64,000 nt of DNA from a virus, in the IMG/VR virus record IMGVR_UViG_3300028883_000007, positions 1-64,000 of that record. One strand, written 5' to 3'. Made by a program: the position numbers and the translations under genes. Positions 6,464-41,954 of the stretch are shown here, piece by piece. The first letter of the stretch is position 1. The number at the start of each line of letters is the position of its first letter. The notes below the pieces were generated by a model. It made no database searches. It was not told the origin of the DNA and saw nothing but the letters and a program-made list of their open reading frames with translations.

Positions 6464-7326
6464 GTTTCATCCTCCTTTATTTCAATTACAGGGACAGAAA
6501 CCTCTCCTGTCTTATAACCCTGGAGGGTTACAGGGAGCTCATCTGTCTCTAATCTTGCATGCACATCAAATTCATAACCAGCCGTTACAACTGCCCCGTC
6601 GCTGGGCTGGCCATATTTTACACTCCCATCCACCGTTACATCCGGGATTTGTTCGGAGACATGAATTTCTGTTCTGCTATTACCGTCATCGTAAACAGTA
6701 GAGAAAACAGTATAAACCCCGTCATTGCCTGTGCTGCCTGCAATGGCAATGCTTGTCCCGTTTACAATATCTCCAGTATGGTCTCCCGCAATACAAAAGA
6801 AATCGTTCGAACTGGAGGCCTCCAAGGCTGTAACCGCCCAAGTACTTTGGGTGAAGGTGACAATCCCGGTATCTGTATCCACAGTGAAATTAGTTACTGA
6901 AGCCCCATTAACCGCCATAACAACAGTTCCGGAAACAGGTTTTGTGATGTTGCGAACCCGAGAAGCTGCTCCAAAGGAGTACGTCTTTTTCAGCTGAAAA
7001 TCAACAGTCTCTCCATCCCCGGCTGTTAAGGTTTGGTCCGTATTGGCAACATCGGAGTCAACCTTACACGATTTGTAATCTCCCCAATCTTTCCACCGAA
7101 AAGTATGAGCTCTACCAAGTACAACATGGAAGAAAGCAATCAAATCCTCCACATCAGACATCCGCTTTACTCCAGAAGAAGCATCATATTCATGTCTGGG
7201 GTATGCCCATTCAGCATTTCTCTTCTCCCTACCTGACCGCATAGAGATAACAGAGGTTTTATAAATCGGGCCGCCAGTAGAGCCAAAACTAATTGTGACC
7301 GGGAACCTTGTGTCAATAAAGCTCAT
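6460..7326 (-). CDS. DUF2460-family distal tail protein (RcGTA g12-like)
   Basis: N-terminus FIDTRFPVTISFGSTGGPIYKTSVISMRSGREKRNAEWAYPRHEYD matches the TIGR02217/DUF2460 signature. It lies directly downstream of the tape measure gene. Confidence 0.75.
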   Translation of the reverse strand: MSFIDTRFPVTISFGSTGGPIYKTSVISMRSGREKRNAEWAYPRHEYDASSGVKRMSDVEDLIAFFHVVLGRAHTFRWKDWGDYKSCKVDSDVANTDQTLTAGDGETVDFQLKKTYSFGAASRVRNITKPVSGTVVMAVNGASVTNFTVDTDTGIVTFTQSTWAVTALEASSSNDFFCIAGDHTGDIVNGTSIAIAGSTGNDGVYTVFSTVYDDGNSRTEIHVSEQIPDVTVDGSVKYGQPSDGAVVTAGYEFDVHARLETDELPVTLQGYKTGEVSVPVIEIKEDET

Positions 7327-9591
7327 TTATATTCCTCCCATTGCCCCAACCAAGGACCTTTTAAGTTGCCTTGTAGATTGTTTAGACAAGTTACCTTCCG
7401 GGGCTTGCACTGTAATATGGAAGGTGTTATTTTGCTCCCCTCTTGTGGTCTTAAGCCGTTCATTTAGGGTTCTCATTTTATCTTCCGTCAAAACTCCTTC
7501 CCCTTCCTCCAAAATAGCAGGGTATTCTCTTGGAATGAGACCTTTATGAAACTTTGGTGCTGAATTAAAAAGGCTGGCAGGCACTAAACGACCAGCGGAA
7601 GCTCTCCCCGCAATTCCTCCATCGTGAAAAAGGCCTGCAACTAAATCAATCCCTTTGCTTATAAGCCCACTTTTACCATCTCCACCACCCAAGTATTTCG
7701 TAAATTTCAACATCTCCTGCTGGATTAACATTTGGGTGATCATTTTGCCCCACTGAGCAAGGATTTCTTTAAAGGTTGCATCAGAACCCCAAAGCATATC
7801 ATTAAGAGTATTTGCAAATTTATTTCCCCAGCCATCAAACATATTGCTTTCTTGGGTTTGCTGCTTTTCGGTAAGTTTGCTTTTCTCCGCATCATACCAA
7901 GCATCCAAAGATTTTTTATCTGTTATATATTTGGAGTAATAATCATATCGCTTTTGAAGTTCTCTTAACTCCAGTTCGGTTTGAGACAAAGTTGCTTGCT
8001 GATACTCGTTATTAAATTCATTTAAAACAGATAAAAGCTCTTGCTGTCCTTGCTGGTTTATATTTTTTCTCTCCGCATTATACCATTCCTCCAACTGGGT
8101 TTTGTCTGTGATATACTTGGAGTAATAATCATATTGTTGTTGAAGCTGATAAAGTTCATAATCTGTCTGGGACAAGGTCGCCTGTTTATATGCATCTGTG
8201 AAGTTCTCCTGTGCATTCAACCTCATTTTTTCATACTCTGCTTGGGCATCCAACAAGGCTTGTTGTGCTTCGGAAATTCCTGTATCAACTTTAGAAGCAG
8301 GACCAAATTTTTTAAGTTTGTTCACAGGAGTAAGAGTTGCGCTTGGGCCACCCAACTGATCACTATCACTCTCCCCATAAAAAGAAGAGGCTACTGAATC
8401 AAAATCTCCACTGCCACGATCACCAACAGGGGCCAAGGCCTTAAGGGCTCCAGTATTCCAATCCCGTTCTCCCTTAAGTACGCTTTTAATCATTGCCAAA
8501 GCATGGGAGAATTCTTTGGAGTCTTTAACTGCTCGCTGAACAGAGAAGTCATAAGCAGAAAAGGTTTTATCTAAATTTGCCATTGCTTGGTTTATCATTA
8601 ACAGCATGGTGATAAACCGCCCAACAGGAGTCGCGCCTAATAACATTCTTCCAAGGATACCAGCCCCAGCCGCACCAATAACCTCTTTTGGTAAAGAGTT
8701 ATAGATATTTATCAAAGTACTTAAAACAGAGACAATTCCGGAAACTGCCGATTTAATATTGGCAATATACTCCGGGACTTTTTGCTTAATCAAATCCTTG
8801 TTGTTTTCAAGCCAGCCTTTTAACCCTTTATTAATTTCTCCTAATTCCTCTTTTAATAGGTCAAAGACTCCTGCCGCCATAACACTCCTTTGAATTTCGG
8901 CAATATAGCTTTTAAAGGTTGCTGTTAAACCCTGCCAAGAAGTCATTTGACGCTTTGCTGCCCCTCCAAAGTCTCTGTTCAACCCCTCCCAAATGGCGTC
9001 AATTACTTTTTCTATCTCCATGCCAGATTTTTGAACTTCTTCAACTGTCATCCCAAAAGCTTCTGTCAAATACTTACGAGCATTAATGCCAGATTCAGAC
9101 AGCTGATTAAGTTCTTCTGCGGAGAGTTTCCCAAGGGTCTGCATCTGACCCAATGCCCGGGAAATCCTTGGCAAGGTTTCCTCTCCAAAAATAGAAGCAG
9201 TATCGGTAAGAATTTGCATTTTTTCAATGGTAGGATTTAACCCCATTGCTTGCATTTTAACAAAGGAATCCACCGCTTGCTGAGTGTTAACGGGCATATC
9301 CAAAGCCCATTTATTTATCTTCTCCAAGGTCTCTGCCCCCTTGCCCTTTGTTAAAGCATCGAGCTTGACCTCCAATTGTTCAAAACTGGTGGCAGTTGCC
9401 AAAAAACCATTGGCTACTTTGGCAACTCCCCAACCAGCAAAAGACCACATTGCAACTCTCTTCAAGCTTTTAAACCTCGCCTCCATATTATGGGTGGAGG
9501 TTTTTACTTTTCTCTCGGCATAGTTAAGCCCTTTATCCAAGCCCTTTGTATCAACCCCGAGATAAGCCATTAAATGTCCAAGAGTTGCCAT
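7327..9591 (-). CDS. Tail tape measure protein
   Basis: 754 aa, helical and coiled-coil-rich. It contains an internal tandem repeat of about 45 aa (QATLSQT.YEL..LQ..YDYYSKYITDK...WY.AE). It follows the G/GT chaperone pair. Confidence 0.85.
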   Translation of the reverse strand: MATLGHLMAYLGVDTKGLDKGLNYAERKVKTSTHNMEARFKSLKRVAMWSFAGWGVAKVANGFLATATSFEQLEVKLDALTKGKGAETLEKINKWALDMPVNTQQAVDSFVKMQAMGLNPTIEKMQILTDTASIFGEETLPRISRALGQMQTLGKLSAEELNQLSESGINARKYLTEAFGMTVEEVQKSGMEIEKVIDAIWEGLNRDFGGAAKRQMTSWQGLTATFKSYIAEIQRSVMAAGVFDLLKEELGEINKGLKGWLENNKDLIKQKVPEYIANIKSAVSGIVSVLSTLINIYNSLPKEVIGAAGAGILGRMLLGATPVGRFITMLLMINQAMANLDKTFSAYDFSVQRAVKDSKEFSHALAMIKSVLKGERDWNTGALKALAPVGDRGSGDFDSVASSFYGESDSDQLGGPSATLTPVNKLKKFGPASKVDTGISEAQQALLDAQAEYEKMRLNAQENFTDAYKQATLSQTDYELYQLQQQYDYYSKYITDKTQLEEWYNAERKNINQQGQQELLSVLNEFNNEYQQATLSQTELELRELQKRYDYYSKYITDKKSLDAWYDAEKSKLTEKQQTQESNMFDGWGNKFANTLNDMLWGSDATFKEILAQWGKMITQMLIQQEMLKFTKYLGGGDGKSGLISKGIDLVAGLFHDGGIAGRASAGRLVPASLFNSAPKFHKGLIPREYPAILEEGEGVLTEDKMRTLNERLKTTRGEQNNTFHITVQAPEGNLSKQSTRQLKRSLVGAMGGI

Positions 9592-11753: not shown

Positions 11754-12097
11754 ACCTTCCGGCAGTATTCATTTGCTTTTATTCCAGGAGTCTTTTTAAA
11801 ACTTTTAATTTCATAAGCTCCATCAACAACAGTTGGATCAATTTCACTTGCGCCAGAAGAAGAATCACCTAACTCTCCCAAATAAACAAAGTCTCCTTCC
11901 GCCATATCTTCGTCCACAAGGATAACGGCTTGGGATTTCTTTTCCTTCCCTTCCGAATCAAGAAACAACTCTTCTTTTTCCTGCCACCGACAATCCTTAT
12001 TAACAGGATTGGAAAAGGATGGTTTGTTATATACGTCCTGTCCACCCTTTGCCCAATAGATAAGTGTTTGGTTTAATCCTCTTGAATACCAACTCAT
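11744..12097 (-). CDS. Head closure / head-tail joining protein (positional call)
   Basis: 117 aa, immediately upstream of and overlapping the gp10-like gene. Size and position fit; there is no strong motif. Confidence 0.4.
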   Translation of the reverse strand: MSWYSRGLNQTLIYWAKGGQDVYNKPSFSNPVNKDCRWQEKEELFLDSEGKEKKSQAVILVDEDMAEGDFVYLGELGDSSSGASEIDPTVVDGAYEIKSFKKTPGIKANEYCRKVWI

Positions 12098-12537
12098 TTT
12101 AGGTTCTCCCTTATTGCTCTTCGGAAAGCCTCCATATCAAAATTTTTCCCGGGGCATGTTTTGTAACCAGCCAACTCTCTATGGCCCAGAACGTTCTCCG
12201 CCGGAATATGAAAAATCTGACATAAAGAAACTACCAGCTTTATTCCTAATAACCACATCTCCAAAGGAACTACTGTTTTGTCAAAATTGCCAACAAAACA
12301 AATTCCCAAAGAGCAAAAATTCATATGTTTCTGAGAACAATGTGCTCCATGACAATTCATCATTCTCCCGGTAAAAATCTGGTGCCTTTTTTCTACTTGT
12401 TCAATAATGAAATGATATCCAATATCATCCATACCAAGAACATTCACGTGATAGTCTTCTATATTATCCCGCGACACCGTTTTACCATCTTTGGTTAAGC
12501 TGTGATGAACAATAATATATTCAGGGACGATAATCAT
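12094..12537 (-). CDS. N-acetylmuramoyl-L-alanine amidase (Amidase_2 / PGRP, T7-lysozyme-like)
   Basis: IIVHHSLT...DIGYHFII...GAHC...SLGICFVGNFD...VLGHRELAGYKTCPG contains the Zn-ligand and catalytic pattern of Amidase_2. Confidence 0.8.
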   Translation of the reverse strand: MIIVPEYIIVHHSLTKDGKTVSRDNIEDYHVNVLGMDDIGYHFIIEQVEKRHQIFTGRMMNCHGAHCSQKHMNFCSLGICFVGNFDKTVVPLEMWLLGIKLVVSLCQIFHIPAENVLGHRELAGYKTCPGKNFDMEAFRRAIRENLK

Positions 12538-12874
12538 TGTTTGCTACCCTTTGGTTCAGTCTCGTAAAATTTTTATTAAGGCTCTTAACTTCGCAAGTTA
12601 AAGTTTCTATACCTTGCGCAAGATATTTGAAGTCAACCTTCATCTCCAGAACCTCTTTTGGAAGCCTTTTATTTTCCACCATCCAATTCTTTATCTCCCG
12701 GATATCAGCAGAAATCTCCAGATGCTTTTTTATCCATGCGGTATTGGTGTCAATTTGGCTTTTTGTAATCCCGATATAATATACAGCAACCGCGATATAA
12801 CAAAAGGCGACAATAATTTGGATGATGTCTGACCGGCGCAATTTGAAACTCTCCTTTGTCGTTTCAGCTGGCAT
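12521..12874 (-). CDS. Type II membrane protein with an extracytoplasmic coiled coil (i-spanin-like or holin-like)
   Basis: One N-proximal transmembrane segment (IIQIIVAFCYIAVAVYYIGI) followed by heptad-like sequence. It overlaps the amidase gene by 17 nt. Confidence 0.45.
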   Translation of the reverse strand: MPAETTKESFKLRRSDIIQIIVAFCYIAVAVYYIGITKSQIDTNTAWIKKHLEISADIREIKNWMVENKRLPKEVLEMKVDFKYLAQGIETLTCEVKSLNKNFTRLNQRVANNDYRP

Positions 12875-12892
12875 TTTTATCTCCTGTTGCTT

Positions 12893-13258
12893 TTATGGGG
12901 TTTGAACTTTTACCTCTATATAAAGCGTGACCGTAAAACCAGCAGGAGCATTTGGAGGGATATGAGTCAAAACCTCATTTGAATTCCCAGATTCTACTCC
13001 CTCCTCATTATATGCTCGCAAAACAAAATGCCCATTGCCCGGGACTGTAACAGTACAACCTACCGTTTGCCCATCCCAAACAGGGTTTGCATAATCATAA
13101 GTCTCTACTCCAAGAGGGCGATAAAAAGCCCTATATCCCGCCAAGTCAGGTTCTGTATTTGGATCCCACATCAACTTCACTTGTACTGCATGAGCCGCTG
13201 GGACAACGCAAACAAATACAAACAAAAAAGCCAATATCATCAATAAATATTTTTTCAT
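12893..13258 (-). CDS. Secreted FN3-like domain protein
   Basis: I prefer the internal start, MKKYLLMILAFLFVFVCVVPAAHA/VQ (signal peptide with an AHA cleavage site), preceded by GGGGAG. It avoids overlap with the upstream gene. KLMWDPNTEPDLAGYRAFY...VLRAYNEEGVESGNSNEV is FN3-like. Confidence 0.55.
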   Translation of the reverse strand: MKKYLLMILAFLFVFVCVVPAAHAVQVKLMWDPNTEPDLAGYRAFYRPLGVETYDYANPVWDGQTVGCTVTVPGNGHFVLRAYNEEGVESGNSNEVLTHIPPNAPAGFTVTLYIEVKVQTP

Positions 13259-13271
13259 TTTCTTCTCCCCT

Positions 13272-13631
13272 TTACTCCCAATTAATGCATTCAACTTTTG
13301 CCGTCGTTTTGCCAACATTGGCCAATTTCCCAGTGGTATCAAGTGCGATTGCCTGCATGCCATATGGGGTTGCCTCTAAACCCTTGCCCTCCTTTCCCAG
13401 AAAAAATTTTGCTTCCGCTTCATCCATCTTTTTGGATTTCTCCCTTGGGTCACGGATAGCCACAAAGTGAGCCGAAAGCCATCTTTCAATTTCCTTAAGG
13501 AGGTCATCTCCAAGGCTCTCTCCGCCCAAAACACTTTCGACCAACAGGTTCGCGGCAGTAATAAATGGGGCCGTCGTTACTGTTGTATCAATGATTGCTT
13601 TTACTTCTTCCTCTGTTACTCTCGCCGCCAT
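13272..13631 (-). CDS. Head-tail adaptor (gp6-like connector; positional plus weak pattern)
   Basis: 119 aa. VTEEEVKAII...ERWLSAHFVAIRDP resembles gp6-like/DUF4054 adaptors. It is the first connector gene after the capsid region. Confidence 0.45.
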   Translation of the reverse strand: MAARVTEEEVKAIIDTTVTTAPFITAANLLVESVLGGESLGDDLLKEIERWLSAHFVAIRDPREKSKKMDEAEAKFFLGKEGKGLEATPYGMQAIALDTTGKLANVGKTTAKVECINWE

Positions 13632-13640: not shown

Positions 13641-14333
13641 TTATTTACCAGACCAAAGAGCAGGTTCAATAAAATCCTCAATACTCTCCTTATCCAGTTT
13701 TAAACCCAGCCGCCTTACCACTGCCAAAATGCCGGTATAATCACGGTCAATCATCTCTTGGGGCCAAACATAATTAATATCAAGGCCAGCTTCCTCCATC
13801 TCCAAAAACCTCTCCTTGTGCTGGTCTATCCAATACAACCAACCCGTTTCATTGTTGTAAGCCCTCATAAAACGGGTTTTCAAACAGGAGTTAATCAAGT
13901 CTGTTGATTTTCTCCGTACAATTATCCAAGTTGCTTCGGGGAAAGCTTTATACCATACAGGCCAAATGAGGCACATTTTGGGGTCTTTATTATACCATGG
14001 ACCGCCTTTATACCCCTGTTTTCGCATCTCCTGCATGACTATTTTCCGCCAATTCTCCACTCCTTCGTTGGACATAAGCCAACAGCGGTCAATATCCGGG
14101 AGAGGTTTCTGGGCCATAGGGTCCGCCCCAATGGTTCGCAAATAAGGTTTTACAAGGCTCTCCCGAAAAGCAATATTTTCGAACATGCCTTTAGGATTTT
14201 CTTTTTGCCCGGGATAAAGCTTACCTCCAAATGCTCCCGCCTTTTGTATCAAAGCAGCAGTCATTGAGGTGCCAGAACGAGCGCAACCTGTAATAAAAAT
14301 GGGTTTATCTTTTATGATGTTCATCAGGGCCAT
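13641..14333 (-). CDS. Sulfotransferase-family protein
   Basis: The N-terminal PAPS 5'-phosphosulfate-binding loop is IFITGCARSGTSMTA. A later stretch, WIIVRRKSTDLINS, fits the 3'-phosphate-binding R-x7-S motif. No transmembrane segment is present. Confidence 0.6.
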   Translation of the reverse strand: MALMNIIKDKPIFITGCARSGTSMTAALIQKAGAFGGKLYPGQKENPKGMFENIAFRESLVKPYLRTIGADPMAQKPLPDIDRCWLMSNEGVENWRKIVMQEMRKQGYKGGPWYNKDPKMCLIWPVWYKAFPEATWIIVRRKSTDLINSCLKTRFMRAYNNETGWLYWIDQHKERFLEMEEAGLDINYVWPQEMIDRDYTGILAVVRRLGLKLDKESIEDFIEPALWSGK

Positions 14334-15073
14334 TCTCCGTTCCAGGGCTCAATGTATTTGACAGGGTTGCCATAATATACTCCGGGGACCGAAATGCTTT
14401 TTGTGACCACCGATCCCATGCCAATTAATGTTTTGGGAGGAACTGTTACTCCATTTCTAATTAAAGAACCAAGACCAATATAACAGTTTTTCCCTATCTT
14501 AACAGAACCTCCAATATTTACTCCCTCAATAATAAGAGTATTATCTCCAACGATGCAATTATGGCCAATGTGACAACCACAATCAATTTTAACATTGCAA
14601 CCAATAATCGTTGAATCAAAAATAGCCCTTGCAACAGTCGTAAGAGCCCCAATAGAAACCCCTGAACAAATTCTTACATTGCCCATATGTTTCATGGAGA
14701 TAATTTTATCATCTTTCTTCACATATCGCATTCCTTCTGGACCAATCTCCGCTGAAGGATGAACAAAAGCATCTTCCGAGATATTGTTTTCCTTAGGTTC
14801 CCGGCAAGCATTAATAGCATTGTGTGCAATAACAAAATCAAGAAAGGGAGTAGGTGAATTGACAAGGGTAAAATTGTCTCCAAAATAATCTGTAAGAGAC
14901 TCCGGAATTTTTTTGTTGTTGGGGATAAAAACAGTCAACTCTCCAAGCCAACCAACCAGCTTTTCAAGCATTCTGGTATCTGTAACATATGCCAAACCCC
15001 CATCTACAGGATTATCAATAGAGCAAGTTCTTTTGAAGTTACCCCACTGAAAGTCTTTTTTATTTTTTATCAT
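14324..15073 (-). CDS. LpxD-like left-handed beta-helix N-acyltransferase
   Basis: The C-terminal half, IGALTTVARAIFDSTIIGCNVKIDCGCHIGHNCIVGDNTLI..GSVKIGKNCYIG.GS.I..G..V......G.GSVVTKSISVPGVYYGNP, aligns by eye with the LpxD hexapeptide region. The start is set at MIKNKK (15073) because the longer ORF-track start overlaps the upstream gene. Confidence 0.65.
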   Translation of the reverse strand: MIKNKKDFQWGNFKRTCSIDNPVDGGLAYVTDTRMLEKLVGWLGELTVFIPNNKKIPESLTDYFGDNFTLVNSPTPFLDFVIAHNAINACREPKENNISEDAFVHPSAEIGPEGMRYVKKDDKIISMKHMGNVRICSGVSIGALTTVARAIFDSTIIGCNVKIDCGCHIGHNCIVGDNTLIIEGVNIGGSVKIGKNCYIGLGSLIRNGVTVPPKTLIGMGSVVTKSISVPGVYYGNPVKYIEPWNGEWP

Positions 15074-15908
15074 AATATTCATCCCAAGGGTGGTTATATG
15101 TTCGGTCATTATAAACATCCTGAACCCACTGTTCTTGGCAATGGTGCGGTCTGGGATGTCCGTGAAAGGCCACAATTTTTGCGTCTTCAGGAATGCTCTT
15201 CCCTCTGACATCATTTTTATAACTGTAAAACCCAGCAAAATCATCCTGAAACAACCGTACTTTAATTTCTCCAGTCAATTCTCTTTGAATAAGCTGGGCA
15301 GTGGTATAATCTTCTTCTCCCCGAAATGCTTTCATGTACTCCGGTTTAAAATTTCTGTATATCCAGGACCAGTCTCCATTCCACATCATCATTCCAGAAC
15401 AATATTTATGTCCTTTGGCAAGCCAGCGAGGCTGAGAACGGGTCATATAAAATGTATCCGGGGGGCAGGTAAGGGCAAGTTCTCCAGCCCTGTCAATAGA
15501 GTCTATAATCAAGGTATCAAGGCCAGTGGCAATCACAGGGCAGGCAAGCCGAAACATTTCTACTACAGACCACCATCCCGGCCAGCCATGTTTAAGAGGG
15601 AGAGTTGTTACAAGAGGATCATCAATTTCCATATCTGTAAGACAAACAAAACGGTGAGGCAAATGGAGATTTCTCCTTACCTGATAAGCAAGCGCAATAG
15701 CGTTATCCGGTATATAATCGCCTCCGCTTTTGAGAACGACTAAAAAAGTAAGCCTGACCCTGTTATCTATAAATTCTTTGGTTTGTTTTTTTGTAGGCAT
15801 ACCCTTACATTCCTTTATATAAGAACGTTTAAATTCGGGCCAATCCTTTGGGCTGTATTGCTTACTCCGCCTTAACAAAAGCCCCAATTTTGTTTCTTGG
15901 GGCTTCAT
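15060..15908 (-). CDS. Putative glycosyltransferase (GT-A-like, W-P-G-W-W motif family)
   Basis: VVLKSGGDY...VCLTD...LKHGWPGWWSVVEMFR...GLDTLIIDS resembles phage proteins usually annotated as glycosyltransferases. The true start may be M37 at 15800; that would place motif copy C (15826-15853) in an intergenic gap. Confidence 0.4.
   Translation of the reverse strand: MKPQETKLGLLLRRSKQYSPKDWPEFKRSYIKECKGMPTKKQTKEFIDNRVRLTFLVVLKSGGDYIPDNAIALAYQVRRNLHLPHRFVCLTDMEIDDPLVTTLPLKHGWPGWWSVVEMFRLACPVIATGLDTLIIDSIDRAGELALTCPPDTFYMTRSQPRWLAKGHKYCSGMMMWNGDWSWIYRNFKPEYMKAFRGEEDYTTAQLIQRELTGEIKVRLFQDDFAGFYSYKNDVRGKSIPEDAKIVAFHGHPRPHHCQEQWVQDVYNDRTYNHPWDEYYDKK
15826..15853 (-). promoter_or_regulatory. Copy C of the hairpin + CCCGAATTTAAACG motif
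   Basis: The minus-sense sequence is CCCAAAGGATTGGCCCGAATTTAAACG. It is about 30/31 identical to copy D at 62833-62863, which lies on the other strand. Confidence 0.4.
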
Positions 15909-16536
15909 GCTGGTAAACCATGTTGTATCCGAAATCTCTGGTCATTTGTTTAAACCAGCCCCACCCATCATCCAAAACATGGGTAGACCCTCCACCCTTC
16001 CAAAAATAATTTTTGTTGTGGAGAGGAACTTCAACAACAACAGCCCGAAACCCCATGTCAAAAATCCACTCCACTTCTTGAGCAGTAAAGTGTTCCAGAG
16101 TATGGGAAGAAACAAGAGCTTGTTTGGCAGGGGAAACAAAACCATCCTCCAACTCCCAAAAATCACGGTCCAGGATATTAAGAGAATAGCAAGGATGCTT
16201 GCAAAGGTTTTCCTGTTTCATAAGAGGGTTAATGTCATAACCCCTCCAACTTCGGATAAGAGGATACCGTTCCAATGCAAGCTGGGCCAATACTCCTTTC
16301 CCGCATCCTAATTCAATAAACTCCAAAAAGCTCATTGACAAAACTTCTCCAATAGCTTCCAGGATTTGGGTTTGGTGAAACCTTGGAATATCTTTACAAA
16401 GGGAATAAACCAACTCATTAAACAGCTGAAGCTCCACAAAAGAGAAATGCCCCTGCCGGTAATGGTTGCGGTAAACATCCCAATTCTTTACTCTGCAAGC
16501 ATCAAGAGACTGTTTTACAACAGGAGTTAAATTCAT
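15862..16536 (-). CDS. Class I SAM-dependent methyltransferase
   Basis: Motif I is FIELGCGKGVLA, followed by GYDIN. The start is set at MNLTPV (16536), which forms an ATGA overlap with the upstream stop. Confidence 0.65.
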   Translation of the reverse strand: MNLTPVVKQSLDACRVKNWDVYRNHYRQGHFSFVELQLFNELVYSLCKDIPRFHQTQILEAIGEVLSMSFLEFIELGCGKGVLAQLALERYPLIRSWRGYDINPLMKQENLCKHPCYSLNILDRDFWELEDGFVSPAKQALVSSHTLEHFTAQEVEWIFDMGFRAVVVEVPLHNKNYFWKGGGSTHVLDDGWGWFKQMTRDFGYNMVYQHEAPRNKIGAFVKAE

Positions 16537-17030
16537 TTTCTCTCCTTCGCCGGGACCCCATAAACAACAGCCCCATCCGGAACGTTTTTGATGACTACCG
16601 ACCCGGTTCCAATAAGGGCATTCATCCCCACTGTTACTCCAGGAGCAATGCTGGCCCCTCCCCCAATACGACAACCATTTTTGAAAATGGGAGGTTGTTC
16701 AAAATACTCCTCCTCCAAATACCGGACCATCCTTTTATCGTTTGTGGTAATAACGCCGGGACCAAAGAAAACATTGCTGCCAATTTTTACTCCGGTTGTA
16801 ATGTGACACTGAGATTGAACGGTAGAACAAGATTGAATTATAACGTTCTGCTCAATTACCACATTATGGCCAATAACAACATTGTCTCCAATCCTTACTC
16901 CAGATCGGATAACAGTGTTTGCCCCAATAAAACAATTGTCACCAATTATAACATGGTCATCAATAACCACATTCTCTCTTACTTTTGTTCCGGGGCCAAA
17001 ACATGACGAAAGATCCATAAAGAACTTCAT
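16533..17030 (-). CDS. Hexapeptide-repeat sugar N-acetyltransferase (WlbB/QdtC-like)
   Basis: Continuous LbH repeats, VIDDHVIIGDNCFIGANTVIRSGVRIGDNVVIGHNVVIEQNV...IGGGASIAPGVTVGMNALIGTGSVVIKNVPDGAVVYGVPAK. The start is set at MKFFMD (17030), preceded by AAGGAGA. Confidence 0.7.
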   Translation of the reverse strand: MKFFMDLSSCFGPGTKVRENVVIDDHVIIGDNCFIGANTVIRSGVRIGDNVVIGHNVVIEQNVIIQSCSTVQSQCHITTGVKIGSNVFFGPGVITTNDKRMVRYLEEEYFEQPPIFKNGCRIGGGASIAPGVTVGMNALIGTGSVVIKNVPDGAVVYGVPAKERK

Positions 17031-17050
17031 TGGTTTCTTTTCTCCTTGTC

Positions 17051-17674
17051 CTAATCGCCAATACATAATATTTCCTCAATGGTTGTTTGTTTAAATTGGG
17101 TAATGGCGCTCCCGGGAGTAGCATTTAAAATCTCCAGTCCCAGCTTTTGGGCATCAGCAGCGATGGCGGGAATATGTTTCAAATATTTTTGGTGAATGTC
17201 TTTAGGAGTATTCTCCCATCCAACATATTCTCGGTGAAAATTCTTTTCACCATTTACAGGCCGCATATCAAAGCCAACAAGGACAATCCTCTTAGCGCCA
17301 AAATGATAAGCAAGGTTAATGGCGGACAGGCCAGAATTTCCGTTCCAAGAGATATATCCCGGAGTATCTTCGATTCCGGAGGGCCGGAGACGGTTAATTT
17401 TTTTTGCCCACCCGGAAGCGTCATAAAGTTTACGATGGCACGAGGTAATAACCAGCCCACCAAATGTTCTCTTTACTTGCTCTTTGTAGCGAGCTCCCCA
17501 TTTAAAATCCCCAAAATACAATACATCAATTCCAGGCCATAAAAAACCAGCATTATTGACTGCAATACATCTCTGGTCTTTCAACAGGGAGAAATCAACA
17601 TTGTTGATGGAAGGACCGCCCCCGAGGATAAAGGCGGTCCTGTTGGGCCATATTTGGGGAGGTATCCAGACCAT
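17051..17674 (-). CDS. Putative glycosyl/sugar transferase (DUF115/MptE-like, sialyltransferase-like GGGPS motif)
   Basis: AFILGGGPSINNVDF...NSGLSAINLAYHFGAKRIVLVGFDM resembles the Rossmann-like core of the DUF115/Maf and CST families. The assignment is tentative. Confidence 0.35.
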   Translation of the reverse strand: MVWIPPQIWPNRTAFILGGGPSINNVDFSLLKDQRCIAVNNAGFLWPGIDVLYFGDFKWGARYKEQVKRTFGGLVITSCHRKLYDASGWAKKINRLRPSGIEDTPGYISWNGNSGLSAINLAYHFGAKRIVLVGFDMRPVNGEKNFHREYVGWENTPKDIHQKYLKHIPAIAADAQKLGLEILNATPGSAITQFKQTTIEEILCIGD

Positions 17675-17677: not shown

Positions 17678-18103
17678 TTACTCCTTCTCCTCGATAAGGT
17701 CTTTGGCCTGCTCTTTGGTAAGAAACCCATCATGAATGGGTTTGTCGGTAAGCACATTGAAAACCTGATAACGACCACCACCGCGATGCTCCATTTTCAA
17801 TTCCAGCTCTTCCGGAATTTCGTCCGGAACATTATCTTCATCCGGAGCATTGTCTTCATCCGGTTTTACTCTTCGCTGTCTCCCGGTCTTTCCTTCGGTT
17901 TCCGGTTTGCTTTTAACGGGAGGAGTGCGCCGCCGAGCCGGGACTTCTTCAAACTTATCCTGTGCTCCGCCGAATTCCTCTGCGCTATAGGCATACGCAA
18001 AATCTCCAGGAAACAACCGTTCGGTTTTGCCCGTTTCAGGGTTGCGATAATAATGCGAACCATACCCTTTTTTGAGACAAAATTTTTTCAATTTCATTGA
18101 CAT
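17678..18103 (-). CDS. Hypothetical protein with a charged, low-complexity centre
   Basis: 141-aa ORF with an RBS (AAGGAGG), directly downstream of the capsid-gene hairpin. No recognisable motif. Confidence 0.5.
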   Translation of the reverse strand: MSMKLKKFCLKKGYGSHYYRNPETGKTERLFPGDFAYAYSAEEFGGAQDKFEEVPARRRTPPVKSKPETEGKTGRQRRVKPDEDNAPDEDNVPDEIPEELELKMEHRGGGRYQVFNVLTDKPIHDGFLTKEQAKDLIEEKE

Positions 18104-18194: not shown

Positions 18195-19238
18195 TTAACT
18201 CCAGTGCTGAATGCCAGAACGGCCTTCAGAATCAGCGCGAACCTGCGGAACACTGATGGTCATAACCTTATACTCCTTGGTCAGACCCCCATCATTGCTC
18301 CACTCGACGACGGTGATACCCATACCCTGAACCAGCCGCACAGTTTCCGTATTCATCTGAACGAGAACCACATTTGCGGCGGTCATCTGATCGGAGACCT
18401 TGATATCACTGATGCCTTCAATTTCCAGGAGGCGCTGACGGAGACTTTTGGGATAACTGGAGTTGTAATCCTCATCCAACTGGGTCTCATAGGCCGTGGG
18501 GATGTAGAGAACATACGGACCGTAACAACGATCCGCGATCGCAGCCTGTTTCATAGCAACAACCTGCGCAAGGATGGTAGCACCAGTGGAAGCAGAGGCG
18601 GTCCATGCGGTAAGACTCCCCGTATTTCGGTTGGGAGCATCCAGGTATCCATAAATGGTCCCTCCGCCGAAGGTATAGGTGCCAGAACCATTGAAGAGCA
18701 TTTGCTCCACTTTGTCGGCGCATTTGCGAGCACACATTTCGATCATCGTGGTATCCAACGGCTGGCCATGTTTACGACTGGCGGTCAGCTGGCGGATATC
18801 AAAGGAGAACTCCTTGTGAACGATGGGCAGGGGGAGATAAGCGATGTCGAATTCAGGGCGGTCTTTCCGGCCCTTACTGGCGGCATTCATGCTCATTGTT
18901 GCACCCTGTACATCCTTCATTTTCTGGTACTCCAGAACAGTCGTTCCCAGTCCGTCGCCAATGTTATACACCAACCCCCGGGAGATAAGGTCAGCGACTC
19001 CAATCAACCGACTTTTGAAAGCCTGGATAACGGCTGTATCGATAACTTTCCACTCATCCTTGCGGAGAGTAGCATTGGCAACAGGGACCGCCTTCAGCTC
19101 ATTGCCAATCATTTTGGAGACATACGGTTTCCCGTCGTTTCCAATAAAGGGCCGCAGAGCCAAGGGAGACATATTGTTCGCCATCAGCTTTTCGGCCACG
19201 CTTCCATGGGCCTGTCCATTTACAAAAAAGTCTTCCAT
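18195..19238 (-). CDS. Major capsid protein (HK97 fold; DUF2184/encapsulin-like sequence pattern)
   Basis: 347 aa. LRKDEWKVIDTAVIQAFKSRLIGVADLI...LGTTVLEYQKM.D...A.MSM......DRPEFD..YLPLPI.HKEF.F..R.L resembles the encapsulin/linocin-like capsid family. It follows the scaffold and decoration genes. Confidence 0.8.
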   Translation of the reverse strand: MEDFFVNGQAHGSVAEKLMANNMSPLALRPFIGNDGKPYVSKMIGNELKAVPVANATLRKDEWKVIDTAVIQAFKSRLIGVADLISRGLVYNIGDGLGTTVLEYQKMKDVQGATMSMNAASKGRKDRPEFDIAYLPLPIVHKEFSFDIRQLTASRKHGQPLDTTMIEMCARKCADKVEQMLFNGSGTYTFGGGTIYGYLDAPNRNTGSLTAWTASASTGATILAQVVAMKQAAIADRCYGPYVLYIPTAYETQLDEDYNSSYPKSLRQRLLEIEGISDIKVSDQMTAANVVLVQMNTETVRLVQGMGITVVEWSNDGGLTKEYKVMTISVPQVRADSEGRSGIQHWS

Positions 19239-19298: not shown

Positions 19299-19766
19299 TT
19301 ACAGAATTTCGACGATACAACGACCGGACGGGTCAACTGCACTGGAACCGGACATATCGCAGGCTTCGCGAGCTCTGGCGATAACATGGGTCTCCGTGAT
19401 GATACCACTGGAATCCGGAACCGCTTCAGACAAGGTGCCATCTCCATTGGAGGACAGGTCATCCGCCTTGGCAATTGCTTGACCATTGGCAATCCAGGCC
19501 AGAACTTCGTCTCCAGACCGGAAGATGCCAAACTGGACAAGATCTCCGCTGGCATAATTGTCATCGATGCCATCGCCCTGAAGGTCATCCTCCAGAGCAA
19601 ACATCATCAGGGCTTTGCCTCCCTTGGTGGCATGGGCTTTCACCGTATCGGTGGCCGCACTCGTGCGTTCCAGGAGATATCCGGGTTTTACTACTCCGGA
19701 AGCCAGTGCTTCTCCCTTTACAGGGGTTCCTTTGATGGTAATCGTATCTCTGTCATTTTCAGCCAT
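19299..19766 (-). CDS. Head decoration / capsid cement protein (DUF2190-like)
   Basis: 155 aa, Gly/Asp-rich and beta-rich in pattern. It lies immediately upstream of the capsid gene, the usual DUF2213-DUF2190-capsid arrangement. Confidence 0.55.
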   Translation of the reverse strand: MAENDRDTITIKGTPVKGEALASGVVKPGYLLERTSAATDTVKAHATKGGKALMMFALEDDLQGDGIDDNYASGDLVQFGIFRSGDEVLAWIANGQAIAKADDLSSNGDGTLSEAVPDSSGIITETHVIARAREACDMSGSSAVDPSGRCIVEIL

Positions 19767-19854: not shown

Positions 19855-21276
19855 TTAGTCGAACTGTAAAACCGGGGCAGGCATGGCTTCTTCTACTACT
19901 TCCCCTGCTCCCCCGGTATTCGCGGCGAAATTGGCCTTGGTCCCCTCCGGCTTGACATTGGCAAGTTTGGCCAGTTTTTCCAACTGCTCCATGCCCATCC
20001 CTTTGAGCTCGTCCTCCGTAAAAGCATTGGCTTCATTGGCCATAAGGCCAGCAACCAGTTCACTCTTCCGGGCATTGTGTAGGCGGATACTTTCCTGAAG
20101 AACATTCTGAATATCTGCCGGAGCTTCAGCAATAAACTCTTCAGTGGTCTTGGCCTTGGAGGGTTCTTTGTTCTCCACCTTTTTCTCCGTTTTGGGCGGA
20201 ACCGGGAGAGCAGAAAGTTCAACCCTTTCATATGCCTCCTCGTCCAGGTTGTTCAGCCATTCGGAATCGGCTTCGGTGAACTTGGTCCTTTCATTTTCAA
20301 TAAGCGCCTTTACTCTTTTTTCACAGCATCCCATTTTGTTTTCTCCTTTGTTATCGTTTGTATTTTGCAAATCTCTGTCTACTTTTTTGTTTACCACAGG
20401 TTTATACTGCTTTTCAAGGAAAACTTCTACCGCCTCCCCTTTAAATTCTACCCTGCCGTTTTCGATTGGTTTATACTCTTGTTTATACAGTTTGGAAGGC
20501 TGATTCCTCACCGCCTCATTATCCCAGTTCGGCTCTGCCCGGTAAATAAAATAAGAGTCAAAAACATCTTGCACATAATGGAGATATTGGTTGTTATCCA
20601 ATTCATCCACTTTGCGCTGGAGTAAATACCGAGTGTCGTTATGGGAGGTTTCATTTTTCACCAACCCCCATTTTGCCAAAAAGTTCCTGACCTTTTTTGT
20701 CAACGTCTCCTTTTCCTCCTTTTTTTGATTTCGAATGCCACAGCCATCCTCCCAGCTACAGGCCCCCGTCGCCCCCGGTAAAAGGGCCAAATGGTCAGGA
20801 TCAATTGTTTGGACAGCCGCCTGATACTCCTCGTCGTTCCAGACTCCTTCTATTTCCTGTATACTCCCGCCAAGCCCCGTTGATACCTGAAGAACACTAT
20901 GGTTTCGGATTGTCGGTATCACGGCTTGGTTTATTGTATTGGTCCTGTCAATGTCAAGCCATGCCTCCGCCTTAAGGCTTTCTTCCTCCCAGCGAGAATT
21001 CCTTATATGGCCAGCAATAAATCGATCTCCACCTTCCTCATTAACAGAAATTAACTCCCCGTTATTCTCCGGATGCGGGATAGTGACTGGAACATTATTC
21101 CAAGCTTCTACATTTTGGTTAATAACATCCGGAGGATAATAAATGGGACCGGCCGACCCAGAATGTACTCCCTCCTTCAGCATGACAACAGGGGCCACCA
21201 AATAACTCCTCCCCTCCAGGGTCACTTCATGAGTTTGATAATTGTCAAGTACATTGTTTGCAAGATTAATATCCAT
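19855..21276 (-). CDS. Capsid scaffolding / maturation protein (DUF2213-like N-terminal domain plus charged coiled-coil C-terminus)
   Basis: The N-terminus is GRSYLVAPVVMLKEGVHSGSAGPIYYPPDV....WNNVPVTIPHP. The long KE-rich C-terminal half is typical of scaffolds. Position is between the MuF and capsid genes. Confidence 0.6.
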   Translation of the reverse strand: MDINLANNVLDNYQTHEVTLEGRSYLVAPVVMLKEGVHSGSAGPIYYPPDVINQNVEAWNNVPVTIPHPENNGELISVNEEGGDRFIAGHIRNSRWEEESLKAEAWLDIDRTNTINQAVIPTIRNHSVLQVSTGLGGSIQEIEGVWNDEEYQAAVQTIDPDHLALLPGATGACSWEDGCGIRNQKKEEKETLTKKVRNFLAKWGLVKNETSHNDTRYLLQRKVDELDNNQYLHYVQDVFDSYFIYRAEPNWDNEAVRNQPSKLYKQEYKPIENGRVEFKGEAVEVFLEKQYKPVVNKKVDRDLQNTNDNKGENKMGCCEKRVKALIENERTKFTEADSEWLNNLDEEAYERVELSALPVPPKTEKKVENKEPSKAKTTEEFIAEAPADIQNVLQESIRLHNARKSELVAGLMANEANAFTEDELKGMGMEQLEKLAKLANVKPEGTKANFAANTGGAGEVVEEAMPAPVLQFD

Positions 21277-21396: not shown

Positions 21397-23298
21397 TCAA
21401 GGTAGTCCCCCTATAAAATCCCAAACTACAGGATCAATATAACTATTTTTAGCCATTACCGGAGTATTGTGAAGGAACTTGCTGGCCTTAATAGAAACGT
21501 CCCTCACAATTTTCTTTTTCTTTGCCTCCGTTAATGTTTTCCCCCCGTACTTTTTCAATTCGTTATAAGCAATCCTTGTTCCATGATATGTACGATAATC
21601 TTTTAAGGAGTACTTTTTACCATTGGCCAACTCTTTAATATAATCATTTAACTTAGAAGCTGGGATATCCGGAAAAAGATCATCGTTTGGTTTTAACCCT
21701 TTTTTTCTCCCCTCTATCCACTCCGCCAAAACATCATCGCGCAAAGTATAACGAGCCGGAAGCCCTTCTTTAGCGGTAAAACTTAGAGTAATTTTATCTC
21801 CGTCAATTTTGGCATGCTTACTTTTAAGGGTTGTAAGGCCATATGCTTTTTTCTTGGCCTTAAAGTCTGTGCGTGAACCTGCCCGAATTGCTGTTTTATC
21901 TTCAAGCTTTAGAAGTAATGCCCTTTGGTCTCCGGCCGAAATCCCATCCTCCATTTTCTTCCGTATAGTAGGCATATCCCGGGAGAAATCTTTTACTCTA
22001 TCAAATTTTTTGCGAGCAGCGGCTTGAATATGTTTTTGGGAATACCTGTACTGCCACCGACCAGCCGCATCCTGACCAATTGCCTGAACCTTTAATTCGG
22101 GGTTAACTGCTACAACAACATTTCTCCATGCGGGAGGGATGCGCATTTTTTTCAATTTCTCTACTACTTCTTCTGCAACCGCCTCTCCGTTTAAATACCA
22201 GTTACCATCTGAGCCCCTTGTATAATCCCTACACGCATCCGGAGTGTCAACTGTTTTATTAAAAAAATTGCCGATGGAACGGAGTATACAATGGCCAAAT
22301 CTACCAATTGAACTCATAGGCTGGGGTTTGCCAGCATCAGGAGGAGAAACAAAACGAGTTCCTACACTTGCCTCTTCTTCGCCCCAACTATCCAACCAAG
22401 GCCGGAGAGCACAACGACAATTAGGCTCACCAATTAATTCATTTCCCTCCTTGCGAGTATATACTTTGCCATGACGAGCAGCATGGGTACTCCTTACTCT
22501 TTCATCTAATGCCGTCCACCATTTGACTTTAACATCTTCTCCAACAATCCCCTCCAGGGCCTCCATTTCATTAAGGGCCGCAGAGTTATGAGTGTAGACA
22601 ATCTCCGTTCGGGCTATTAACCTTGCCCGAACTATCCCAACCTTATCTACTCTATCATTAAGCTTTTGGGCTATTCTGTAGGGTCCGTCTCCCCTTGCCA
22701 TGCCATTGGCCAATTCCCGGGAAATTTGGGAGTTCATTGCTTCTGTTACTCCCTTAAGCTCGTTGAAAGCCCTTGTATATATAAGGGCCACCCTATCAGC
22801 ATGAAAAGGCTGGTAAAAAGCCGCTCCCAAAGTTTCATCCGTATAAGCTGGTATTACATCTACTCCACCAGCAATCAGATCTTGTCTGGCTTCGGCCAAA
22901 CCCTTTTGATAGGCGGACTGTATATAAACGTTTGTCCAGGGAGTATCTCTCCGGTCCAATATTGACGGGCCACGAGTGATCTCCAGGATACCTTTTTCTT
23001 CTTCTCCCTGAAGCCACTCCATAAACCCAGCAATTTTTTCATCATCTTTAGAATACCGAAAAGCTCTCCTTGGGACCGGGTCCAGGTTCTCCGCCAGTGT
23101 TACAACCTCCCGAGGCTTCAGGTCAAAGCAATCATTGTCTATAATAGACTTGCGGATTACTCCCTTTAAAGCCCGAAAACGCTTGTTCATCTGGGAGCAA
23201 AACTGATTCCGCAGAGTCAACGTCATTGTCGGGTCTTTATCTCTCCGGGAGATATTTGCAACTTGAACTCTCGCTATATGTTGGGAAAGTGTAGTCAT
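21397..23298 (-). CDS. MuF/SPP1 gp7-family head morphogenesis protein fused to a type IB DNA topoisomerase domain
   Basis: MuF part: ARLIARTEIVYTHNSAALNE...WWTALDERVRSTHAARHGKVY...GEPNCRCALRPW. TopIB part (about 21400-22266): IPPAWRNVVV...GQDAAGRWQYRYS, AIRAGS...YGLTTLKSKH, SFTAKEG, KDYRTYHGTRIA, LHNTPVMAKNSYIDP. Confidence 0.85.
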   Translation of the reverse strand: MTTLSQHIARVQVANISRRDKDPTMTLTLRNQFCSQMNKRFRALKGVIRKSIIDNDCFDLKPREVVTLAENLDPVPRRAFRYSKDDEKIAGFMEWLQGEEEKGILEITRGPSILDRRDTPWTNVYIQSAYQKGLAEARQDLIAGGVDVIPAYTDETLGAAFYQPFHADRVALIYTRAFNELKGVTEAMNSQISRELANGMARGDGPYRIAQKLNDRVDKVGIVRARLIARTEIVYTHNSAALNEMEALEGIVGEDVKVKWWTALDERVRSTHAARHGKVYTRKEGNELIGEPNCRCALRPWLDSWGEEEASVGTRFVSPPDAGKPQPMSSIGRFGHCILRSIGNFFNKTVDTPDACRDYTRGSDGNWYLNGEAVAEEVVEKLKKMRIPPAWRNVVVAVNPELKVQAIGQDAAGRWQYRYSQKHIQAAARKKFDRVKDFSRDMPTIRKKMEDGISAGDQRALLLKLEDKTAIRAGSRTDFKAKKKAYGLTTLKSKHAKIDGDKITLSFTAKEGLPARYTLRDDVLAEWIEGRKKGLKPNDDLFPDIPASKLNDYIKELANGKKYSLKDYRTYHGTRIAYNELKKYGGKTLTEAKKKKIVRDVSIKASKFLHNTPVMAKNSYIDPVVWDFIGGLP

Positions 23299-23299: not shown

Positions 23300-23488
23300 T
23301 TATTTTATCCAGTACAACAAACCAAAATATATGGCCCAAATAAAACCAATTGGGAGCAACCAAAATAACCGAAAGAGTGGAGTAATGTCAAAATAGCCAA
23401 TTGCTCTATATGGCCGAAAGGTAAGCCACAAACACAATAGAGTAAATAAGCTGGGGAATACCCAAAATCCAATTGTAACTTGCATCAC
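23300..23488 (-). CDS. Small two-TM membrane protein
   Basis: 62 aa with two hydrophobic spans. It is tightly packed between the portal and MuF genes (4-nt overlap upstream, 1-nt gap downstream). Confidence 0.5.
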   Translation of the reverse strand: MMQVTIGFWVFPSLFTLLCLWLTFRPYRAIGYFDITPLFRLFWLLPIGFIWAIYFGLLYWIK

Positions 23489-41107: not shown

Positions 41108-41124
41108 AAAAAAATGAAAAAATT

Positions 41125-41158
41125 ATGAAACTTTTTCAATTACCCTTTATAATATAAT
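41125..41158 (+). promoter_or_regulatory. Candidate promoter with tandem overlapping TATAAT boxes
   Basis: cTTTATAATATAATca has TATAAT at 41148-41153 and 41153-41158. The -35 is weak (ATGAAA at a 17-nt spacing). It shares the word TTTATAATATA with 34803 and about 49890. Confidence 0.35.
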
Positions 41159-41224
41159 CAGAACACAATGAAACATTAATTTTTCACAAGCCAATTTTGG
41201 CAAACAAACCAAAGGAGAAGAGAA

Positions 41225-41869: not shown

Positions 41870-41888
41870 ATAACAGCATCATATGTTC

Positions 41889-41924: not shown

Positions 41925-41954
41925 GTGCCTTTAACATATCAAAAAAGGAGTATT

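Follow-up and report, generated by a model that had tools for sequence, protein, structure and literature searches.

Six minus-strand genes (g1 to g6; 13641-17674) lie in the head module of a 64,000-nucleotide stretch of viral DNA, positions 1 to 64,000 of IMG/VR virus record IMGVR_UViG_3300028883_000007, which we refer to as the window. Transcribed with g6 first and g1 last, between the genes for the major capsid protein (MCP) and a head-tail adaptor-like protein, they are predicted to encode a sulfotransferase (ST; g1), two glycosyltransferases (GTs; g3 and g6), two acyltransferases of the left-handed beta-helix (LbH) fold (g2 and g5) and a methyltransferase (g4). We propose that the enzymes of this locus glycosylate and sulfate a phage head protein in the cytoplasm; the target in this reading is one that we infer, and to the reading as a whole we give a probability of roughly 0.55. 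Decoration of a head protein is favoured because the locus holds a fixed position in the head module, recurs in the head modules of prophages, has a homologue in a flagellar locus and is carried by phages binned with several phyla, and because its ST is never found without a GT in complete islands.

A first-pass annotation, made from the sequence of the window alone, had described the six genes as a peculiar sugar-tailoring island between the capsid and adaptor genes. All six open reading frames (ORFs) are present, and their placement stands, except that a conserved gene, p141, intervenes after the MCP gene. The view of a peculiar set did not hold: hundreds of related metagenomic phage contigs of ~60-70 kb carry a hypervariable locus characteristic of the clade, and the six genes represent one of its variants.

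A fixed site in the head module with variable content

Two sets of loci, whose members carry L-numbers as labels, were compared. The first was anchored on the ST gene and comprised 80 loci from metagenomes and 30 from GTDB genomes; the ST has hundreds of metagenomic homologues (47-73% identity), many of them on contigs of 60-68 kb. Because this set was anchored on the ST itself, a second set was anchored on the MCP alone, independent of the ST. For this purpose an alignment-based scan of IMG/VR yielded more than 532 MCP relatives; a pattern scan of the same database with the single MCP sequence gave no match. Loci with this capsid type share the order scaffold, p155, MCP, small protein, DUF115 gene, variable cassette, usually a GT8-like GT, ST and adaptor. 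The locus was present in 52 of the 54 complete MCP-to-adaptor intervals of the MCP-anchored set; the ST was found in 47 of these intervals, the DUF115 gene in 51 and the GT8-like GT, which is often duplicated or fused, in 43, and 2 intervals had none of the three. The adaptor gene comes next after the ST in 60 of the 81 metagenomic loci that have a downstream gene.

Islands at this site contain between 1 and 16 genes. Minimal ones consist of a DUF115 gene and an ST, or of these two with a GT, and at least one GT is present in all 30 complete ST-anchored islands, where the ST never stands alone. When the six-gene synteny was searched for in related phages, as the first-pass annotation had proposed, the fixed position and the core were recovered, and the LbH and methyltransferase part was shared by few, the counterparts of g2, g4 and g5 being common to relatives such as L001 and L206. 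The core of the locus is the DUF115 gene, the GT8-like GT and the ST; the LbH and methyltransferase genes are accessory.

The accessory content is highly diverse. Across 83 islands, 602 genes fall into 161 families, with 117 singletons. Island content tracks MCP identity, the median Jaccard index of content being 0.21-0.25 at MCP identities <70%, 0.37 at 70-80% and at least 0.70 at >80%. Among the accessory families are transferases (GT2, GT9, GT1/4, GT-D (DUF1792), several methyltransferases, Sulfotransfer_2 and an extra Sulfotransfer_3) and other functions, including adenosine 5'-phosphosulfate (APS) kinase in some islands of relatives, short-chain dehydrogenase/reductase (SDR), zinc-dependent alcohol dehydrogenase, a split transketolase, cupin and radical S-adenosylmethionine (SAM)/SPASM proteins. 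Natural fusions of island enzymes also occur (DUF115 with GT8, methyltransferase with GT9 and GT8, and DUF115 with methyltransferase). Such rapid turnover suggests that an agent able to recognise the virion surface exerts selection, and 161 families in 83 islands at a single site would imply that the capsid surface is under strong diversifying selection. Candidate causes, none of them established, include adhesion of the particles, their colloidal stability in brines, escape from recognition by hosts or grazers, and decoy binding. The metagenome-assembled genome (MAG) bins that hold the phage contigs belong to very different phyla, mostly of Gram-negative sediment bacteria, with the proviso that the binning may be wrong. 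One island also harbours a GIY-YIG/NUMOD3 homing endonuclease gene (L006 9118-10008 / L007 2364-3254), located just upstream of the ST and beside the gene of a 115-aa APS kinase.

In the window, the six genes belong to a long minus-strand late operon that runs through the portal, MuF-like, scaffold-like, p155, MCP and p141 genes to g6-g1 and the adaptor-like gene (Table 1). The tight coupling that had been described earlier is seen in the sequence. The start of g4 overlaps the stop of g5 in an ATGA at 16533-16536, with AAGGAG upstream; g3 and g2 overlap by 14 nt and g2 and g1 by 10 nt; the gap upstream of g6 is 3 nt; and the g1 stop is joined to the adaptor ATG by TAAGGAGGTATC. For g3, the public gene call and likely start is 15800, as against an ORF end at 15908. 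The terminator scan detected no convincing intergenic terminator, giving weak intragenic matches only, and matches of the promoter and terminator scans alike were near background only. The G+C content of the island (0.41-0.45) is the same as that of its flanks, and no tRNA genes were found in the window. The island and the late head genes are translationally coupled.

The association of the ST with head genes extends beyond this clade. Two prophages with unrelated capsid families keep the ST inside their head modules, together with a DUF115 gene or a GT8-like GT. The prophage of Euryhalocaulis caribicus JL2009 (L097) encodes TerL, portal, MuF, DUF115, ST, a DUF2213 scaffold, a cement protein and an MCP of PF09950, and that of Microbaculum marinum KCTC 52363 (L105) encodes MuF, LbH, a GT8-like GT, ST and a Gp13-like MCP. 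In two Halioxenophilus genomes (L103 8634-18632, and L096), a ~35%-identical ST directly follows FlgL in a flagellar locus, and after it come DegT, HMW1C-like GT, FkbM, LbH, AMP-ligase and oxidoreductase genes; judged by these predicted genes, the locus is a flagellin-glycosylation island. It hints at sulfated flagellin glycans in the genus. In L109, L099 and L111, distant homologues of the ST lie beside genes that give no clue to its role (peroxidase, SelO, RTX).

Predicted enzymes of the six genes

The product of g1 is predicted to be an ST of the type that uses 3'-phosphoadenosine 5'-phosphosulfate (PAPS). It matches Sulfotransfer_3 (PF13469) above threshold (34 bits against a cut-off of 27 bits, E 4.6e-8) and contains the GCARSGTS loop and the R-x7-S motif (R141-x7-S149) on which the first-pass annotation had based the same assignment. 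Residues R19, S20, G21, T22, S23, E52, R140, R141 and S149 are invariant among 40 homologues (45-72% identity). The APS kinase genes of some islands lend indirect support to a predicted use of PAPS. That annotation had also called for a fold check, which was run on an AlphaFold2 (AF2) model of g1 (pLDDT 92.4) with Foldseek. All 16 PDB matches at E <= 1e-3 are sulfotransferases, headed by the tyrosylprotein sulfotransferases (TPSTs) TPST2, TPST1 and tick TPST (E 3e-5 to 1e-4, TMq 0.60-0.64), with Stf1, Stf9 and the CurM ST next. A g1 profile searched against PDB matched TPST2/TPST1 at a weak E of 0.015-0.07 and one other protein, SgdX2, and single-sequence PDB searches of g1, g3, g4 and g6 returned nothing significant. 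The three TPSTs are the closest solved folds to g1 and share with it the RSGT[ST] 5'-phosphosulfate loop, the R-x7-S 3'-phosphate motif and a Glu at the expected catalytic-base position; however, identity is 14-17% at a TMq of ~0.6, g1 is ~50-100 residues shorter, and non-protein sulfotransferases score almost equally.

The first gene of the locus and also its best conserved, g6, matches phrog_4603 (1e-38) and is ~29% identical to PmgO of phage P1. Its match to PF01973 (MptE-like/DUF115; 1.6e-5) reaches 25.2 bits against a cut-off of 34.6 bits and covers residues 113-138 only; many g6 homologues carry a precomputed match to the same family. A profile of 40 sequences searched against PDB found Cst-II (1e-3), MptE (0.011) and Cst-I (0.013), with the Cst-II alignment spanning the N-terminal GxGPS and the central SG...LG...I.L.G.D motifs. 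The ILGGGPS motif is confirmed, and G19, G20, S22, G134, D136 and H147 are invariant. The earlier description of g6 as DUF115/sialyltransferase-like is in line with these matches, borderline as the Cst-II match is, and we describe it as a DUF115/GT42-like putative transferase. Maf proteins are ~600 aa long with extra flanking domains, and g6 as a Maf orthologue was rejected: at 207 aa (homologues mostly 190-250 aa) and without large flanking regions, it would be the equivalent of the Maf core at most. No flagellin or nonulosonate biosynthesis genes were found in the window or in the annotated islands, as judged from the larger window ORFs and by homology.

For g3, the sequence and the modelled fold point to a GT8-like retaining GT-A glycosyltransferase, which refines the earlier call of a putative GT-A-like enzyme. 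It has no Pfam match but matches phrog_1962 'glycosyltransferase' (3.8e-25) and is ~30% identical to P1 PmgQ. Foldseek matches of the AF2 model (pLDDT 94.5) are LgtC, GlyE, glycogenin, the GT8 protein 3tzt, LARGE1 and UGGT (E ~1e-7; TMq 0.53-0.59 for the GT8-type folds). A g3 profile aligns with glycogenin at E 0.02 over the DxD region and the FHGxPRP motif. At the DxD position g3 has G-L-D against D-A-D in glycogenin, and the second Asp (D95) is invariant; several relatives of g3 in other islands have D-L-D there. The FHGhPRP sequence aligns with HFlGqtKPW of glycogenin, matching the C-terminal H-x-x-G-x-x-(K/R)-P motif, and F212, G214, P216, R217 and P218 are near-invariant. Single-linkage clustering placed g3 and g6 in one family; this was rejected, the merge being caused by natural fusion proteins between genes that are not homologous.

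The first-pass identities of the three accessory enzymes hold as well. Matches of g5 to Hexapep (9e-33), to a NeuD/PglB/VioB model (5e-28, below cut-off) and to PDB entries 4mzu (8.5e-23), WlbB 3mqg (8e-16) and QdtC 3fs8 (7e-15) predict an LbH N-acetyltransferase of the WxcM/WlbB/QdtC class; its family occurs in a minority of islands only. The product of g4 is probably a class I SAM methyltransferase. It carries the motif I sequence ELGCGKG, matches Methyltransf_25/23 weakly (2e-3 to 5e-3; Methyltransf_25 at 19 bits against a cut-off of 27 bits) and has no match in PDB, and its orthologue in L206 has a firm Methyltransf_23 match. For g2, an LpxD-like LbH acyltransferase corresponding to the C-terminal half only is predicted: the NCBIfam LpxD model aligns with residues 96-244 only (9e-37), leaving the first 95 residues without an assignment, and in PDB (3e-25) residues 97-244 of g2 pair with residues 165-318 of LpxD. 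An LpxD orthologue was rejected, with 127 bits below the family cut-off of 207 bits and the LpxD N-terminal domain not detected.

Candidate acceptors and alternative readings

If the locus decorates a head protein, the enzymes would act in the cytoplasm during head assembly on the MCP, p155 or p141. The DUF115 enzyme would initiate an O-linked glycan with a CMP- or NDP-sugar taken from the host, as Maf does on flagellin, and the GT8-like enzyme would lengthen it with a UDP-sugar as donor. Amino-sugar residues or their nucleotide-sugar donors would be tailored by the LbH enzymes and the methyltransferase, and the ST would add sulfate from host PAPS. The capsid would then bear a coat of negative charge that varies between strains. 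In a wider form, which we hold tentatively and at somewhat less than even odds, a very large uncultured clade of sediment and saline habitats together with at least two unrelated prophage lineages may coat their capsids with strain-variable sulfated O-glycans, or with glycans plus sulfotyrosine, by means of a toolkit resembling that of flagellin glycosylation.

Three neighbouring proteins are candidate acceptors. The MCP matches PF19774 (2.5e-25), Linocin_M18 (2e-12) and phrog_771. The p155 protein is conserved across the clade and has no Pfam match; the gene at the equivalent position of the L097 prophage encodes a Phage_cement protein (PF22758), so that the position of p155 matches that of a cement or decoration protein. 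In the 30 complete ST-anchored islands, the gene that immediately follows that of the MCP encodes a protein of the p141 family, and the family is retained in the island-less loci L184 and L185. Its members have no match in Pfam, PHROG or NCBIfam, and their N-terminal (...GGGSF...IKPG...F) and C-terminal (HRGGGWYDV.N..GK..NEKAL) domains are joined by a highly variable, acidic and Pro-rich linker; p141 may be an accessory protein of the capsid or the acceptor of the glycan.

The first-pass annotation had argued that a phage product rather than an O-antigen is decorated. Two of its grounds are borne out: hydrophobic segments are lacking in all six window proteins, and no flippase, polymerase or undecaprenyl-phosphate (Und-P) transferase was found, either here or in the 30 complete islands, whose 218 genes include no multi-pass membrane protein. 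Classical O-antigen seroconversion, by Gtr, Wzy or a membrane O-acetyltransferase, needs integral membrane components, of which the island has none. The fixed position, the two prophage lineages and the flagellin-locus homologue add to the support for a phage product, the choice of target still being one that we infer.

Within the reading of head-protein decoration, the main alternative concerns the ST step: the GTs would decorate a head protein, and the ST would sulfate tyrosines of virion proteins directly, as TPSTs or RaxST do, instead of a glycan. The TPSTs that lead the structural matches of g1, and that account for its profile matches in PDB apart from SgdX2, speak for this, as do the location of g1, almost always last and beside the adaptor, and its retention in minimal islands that otherwise have DUF115 alone (L014, L151, L176, L193). 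We nevertheless regard it as unlikely, since the scores are modest and nearly equalled by those of Stf1, Stf9 and CurM, whose acceptors are not proteins, the RSGT[ST] loop is general to PF13469, every complete island with g1 has a glycosyltransferase as well, the Halioxenophilus homologue of g1 lies among sugar-modifying genes, and the p141 alignment lacks a conserved acidic Tyr motif. The main rival from outside holds that the enzymes remodel a host envelope glycoconjugate, such as the core of lipooligosaccharide (LOS) or lipopolysaccharide (LPS), lipid A or capsule precursors, on the cytoplasmic side during infection, possibly to block superinfection, to keep progeny from re-adsorbing to debris or to aid release. 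An embedded locus coupled to the late head operon is hard to square with this, and so are the lack of any membrane protein, flippase, polymerase or Und-P transferase in 30 islands and the recurrence of the head-gene association in three capsid lineages; a host-specific glycan target would, moreover, not be conserved among phages that share one core and are binned with very different phyla. We thus consider this rival doubtful too, even though the folds matched by g3 include the LOS galactosyltransferase LgtC, genes of the g3 family stand at lysogenic-conversion positions in temperate coliphages, marine bacteria have sulfotransferases in O-chain loci (PMC3542563), and g2 resembles LpxD, from which it differs in having no detectable N-terminal domain and a score below the family cut-off.

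Modification of a host protein (flagellin, pilin or another surface protein) by enzymes of flagellin-glycosylation ancestry would account for the ST homologue in a flagellar glycosylation locus and for the DUF115/Maf-like ancestry of g6. Yet it is improbable for genes that are expressed late with the head genes of an apparently lytic genome, which leaves little time for a modified appendage to matter; the genes lie inside head modules and not in early or moron regions, and the phage DUF115 proteins, at ~200-240 aa, are far shorter than Maf. Hypermodification of phage DNA or nucleotides, for example by glycosylation of modified bases, is in our view very improbable. Phage DNA glycosylation is known in other systems, and this phage encodes a 7-deazaguanine pathway (QueC, FolE and a QueE-like radical SAM protein) at 40-46 kb, but that pathway sits in the replication module and not in the island, and DNA modification was rejected as the leading explanation for this reason. 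The island also encodes no hydroxymethylase or DNA-binding domain, its fold matches are protein, LOS or glycan transferases, and the cassette genes of relatives (GT2, GT9, transketolase, SDR) are typical of glycan pathways; no case of a PAPS-dependent sulfotransferase that sulfates DNA is known to us.

Several observations weigh against the decoration of a head protein by this locus. Two members of the clade have no locus at all, and Brevundimonas phage MaInes, which has the best MCP match among isolated phages (37% identical), has no island, so that assembly does not depend on the locus. The p141 alignment shows no conserved Ser/Thr-rich or acidic-Tyr acceptor motif. No genes of nucleotide-sugar, CMP-sugar or PAPS pathways were found in the window, as judged from its larger ORFs and by homology to island genes of relatives, and the donors are therefore assumed to be supplied by the host; the first-pass claim that nucleotide-sugar synthesis genes are lacking holds to this extent and no wider. 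Relatives of the GT8-like and LpxD-like enzymes include LOS and lipid A enzymes, the scores of g6 are borderline or sub-threshold, and the flagellar-locus homologue of the ST comes from a single genus. Phage P1 can dispense with pmgO and pmgQ, both of them uncharacterised. Temperate coliphages have the GT8-like gene at moron positions (in Chlobot beside int and a tail fibre gene, in phiNP flanked by the lysis genes and terS), which fits host-surface conversion. To these we add the Caulobacter jumbo phages, such as CcrSC (L202 6037-10523), in which a DUF115 homologue follows the tail-fibre genes. There it heads a run of hypothetical genes and a methyltransferase gene that ends at the endolysin gene and may be a related tailoring cassette.

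Gene neighbourhood and known systems

Table 1. Coordinates of the locus, its neighbours and other features of the window
Feature	Position	Strand	Description
Signal-peptide protein, single-TM protein and Amidase_2 (PGRP-type) enzyme	12094-13258	-	three genes that separate the adaptor gene from the following head-tail gene
Head-tail adaptor-like protein	13272..13631	-	downstream boundary of locus; phrog_37884
g1	13641..14333	-	predicted PAPS-type sulfotransferase (ST); last gene of locus, directly upstream of adaptor gene
g2	14324..15073	-	predicted LbH acyltransferase, LpxD-like C-terminal half; accessory
g3	15060..15908	-	predicted retaining GT-A glycosyltransferase, GT8-like; family of phage P1 PmgQ; core
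g4	15862..16536	-	probable class I SAM methyltransferase; accessory
g5	16533..17066	-	predicted LbH N-acetyltransferase, WlbB/QdtC/WxcM class; accessory
g6	17051..17674	-	DUF115/MptE-like, GT42 (Cst-II)/Maf-like putative glycosyltransferase; first gene of locus
p141	17678..18103	-	conserved 141-aa two-domain protein between MCP gene and g6
MCP	18195..19238	-	HK97-like, DUF6260/encapsulin-like; upstream boundary of locus
p155	19299..19766	-	155-aa small head protein between scaffold-like gene and MCP gene
Scaffold-like DUF2213 protein	19855-21276	-	late operon
MuF-like protein	21397-23298	-	late operon
Portal	23485-24939	-	late operon
QueD candidate	40072-40467	+	neighbour of 7-deazaguanine genes
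QueE-like radical SAM	40442-41107	+	7-deazaguanine cluster
QueC	41925-42635	+	7-deazaguanine cluster; 3e-66
GTP cyclohydrolase I (FolE)	42632-43540	+	7-deazaguanine cluster; 2e-71
DpdA candidate	44164-46185	+	neighbour of 7-deazaguanine genes; no Pfam match
DnaE-type Pol III alpha	46552-49875	+	C-terminal uracil-DNA-glycosylase-superfamily domain

The adaptor-like protein matches phrog_37884 at 4.7e-7, and its homologue in L004 has a weak E217_gp27 match. Downstream of its gene are head-tail, tail-terminator, tube, tape-measure and distal tail genes, the last resembling those of gene transfer agents (GTAs). The three genes that stand between the adaptor and the next head-tail gene, one of them for a protein with a single transmembrane (TM) segment, look like a lysis-type cassette within the structural operon and were not detected by phmmer in ~117 other related loci. 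The larger ORFs of the window serve replication, recombination and the 7-deazaguanine pathway; the window ORFs that were scanned include no integrase gene, and no island-type accessory genes were found elsewhere in the window by homology to island genes of relatives.

Some head proteins carry additional domains. The MuF-like protein (PF04233; also in L206 1034-2902) ends in a fused type IB topoisomerase (PF21338 and PF01028), which suggests that the topoisomerase is packaged in the virion as cargo; its L001 orthologue has another C-terminal domain with an HEGFH motif, suggesting that C-terminal cargo domains are swappable. In the L097 prophage the portal (6433-8331) is fused to a C-terminal anti-CBASS Acb1 domain (PF23474, 2e-34), an anti-defence nuclease that may be delivered with the portal. 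In the replication module, the 7-deazaguanine DNA-modification cluster (40072-46185) is followed by the DnaE-type polymerase, whose uracil-DNA-glycosylase-superfamily domain covers residues 956-1086.

Glycosylation of phage virions has so far been shown for a few mycobacteriophages only. GTs of Che8, Corndog and Myrna glycosylate the phages' own capsid and tail-tube proteins (Freeman 2023, as cited in PMC12363180). That system was demonstrated experimentally, whereas the function of the locus described here is predicted from its genes. The mycobacteriophage GTs appear unrelated to g3 and g6 at the BLAST level, no Mycobacterium phages being among the matches listed for g3 (tblastn, 50,697 phage records) or g6, and we found no report of a sulfotransferase or a hypervariable cassette in the mycobacteriophage system. 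The hosts differ as well, Actinobacteria in the one case and, going by the MAG bins, mostly Gram-negative sediment bacteria in the other. The present locus suggests that virion glycosylation may be common among environmental phages and of a richer chemistry, involving sulfate, acyl and methyl groups as well as a wide range of GT types.

A parallel for sulfation comes from eukaryotic giant viruses. The fibril-glycosylation clusters of Megavirinae (Moumouvirus australiensis, Cotonvirus) contain acetyltransferases, GTs, a sulfotransferase and APS kinase, and sulfation of virion glycans was predicted for them (PMC10117803). As in the phage islands, some of which also have APS kinase, these are clade-specific viral glycan genes; the Megavirinae, however, have full nucleotide-sugar pathways, and sulfation there is a prediction only. 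Among phages, sulfotransferases have been annotated in a few, including S-SCSM1 and FoX4, and the unverified record 'Pseudomonas phage Y4' has an ST domain in a 414-aa ORF beside an APS-kinase-like ORF, with no recognisable phage head genes. Our literature searches found no paper on a sulfotransferase in a phage structural module, so that the novelty claimed in the first-pass annotation stands in this narrower form, next to the predicted giant-virus clusters and the phage sulfotransferases already annotated. What appears to be undescribed is a core in which a minimal DUF115 protein is combined with a GT8-like GT and a TPST-like ST, along with its fixed site in the head module, its diversification by cassettes, and its prevalence in a large uncultured clade.

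In phage P1, PmgO and PmgQ (P7 HdmD), both 'putative morphogenetic' proteins, are homologues of g6 and g3 encoded in one lytic-cycle operon. P1 differs in having no sulfotransferase, and its two genes are separated by pmgP and ppp and lie outside the head module. The reading proposed here would give both proteins a testable function. Related prophage modules are also carried by two cultured and tractable hosts, Euryhalocaulis caribicus JL2009 and Microbaculum marinum KCTC 52363, and compact soluble enzymes for protein glycosylation and sulfation could serve glyco-engineering.

The flagellin glycosylation islands of bacteria offer a further comparison. Maf/DUF115 enzymes are described as O-glycosylating Ser/Thr residues of flagellin in the cytoplasm before export, and as able to use CMP-Kdo or CMP-Neu5Ac. 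In flagellin islands, and presumably in the phage locus, soluble cytoplasmic enzymes decorate a self-assembling surface protein before its assembly. Both combine a DUF115-type transferase with LbH acetyltransferases and methyltransferases, and both are hypervariable between strains. The phage locus differs in its minimal DUF115 protein (~200-240 aa), in the lack of a nonulosonate synthase or CMP-activating enzyme in the islands examined, in the capsid protein that is its presumed acceptor, and in having a GT8-like GT and an ST as core genes. If our reading is correct, these phages would provide the first sulfated virion of a prokaryotic virus, and their locus would be the capsid counterpart of the O-antigen and flagellin glyco-diversity islands.

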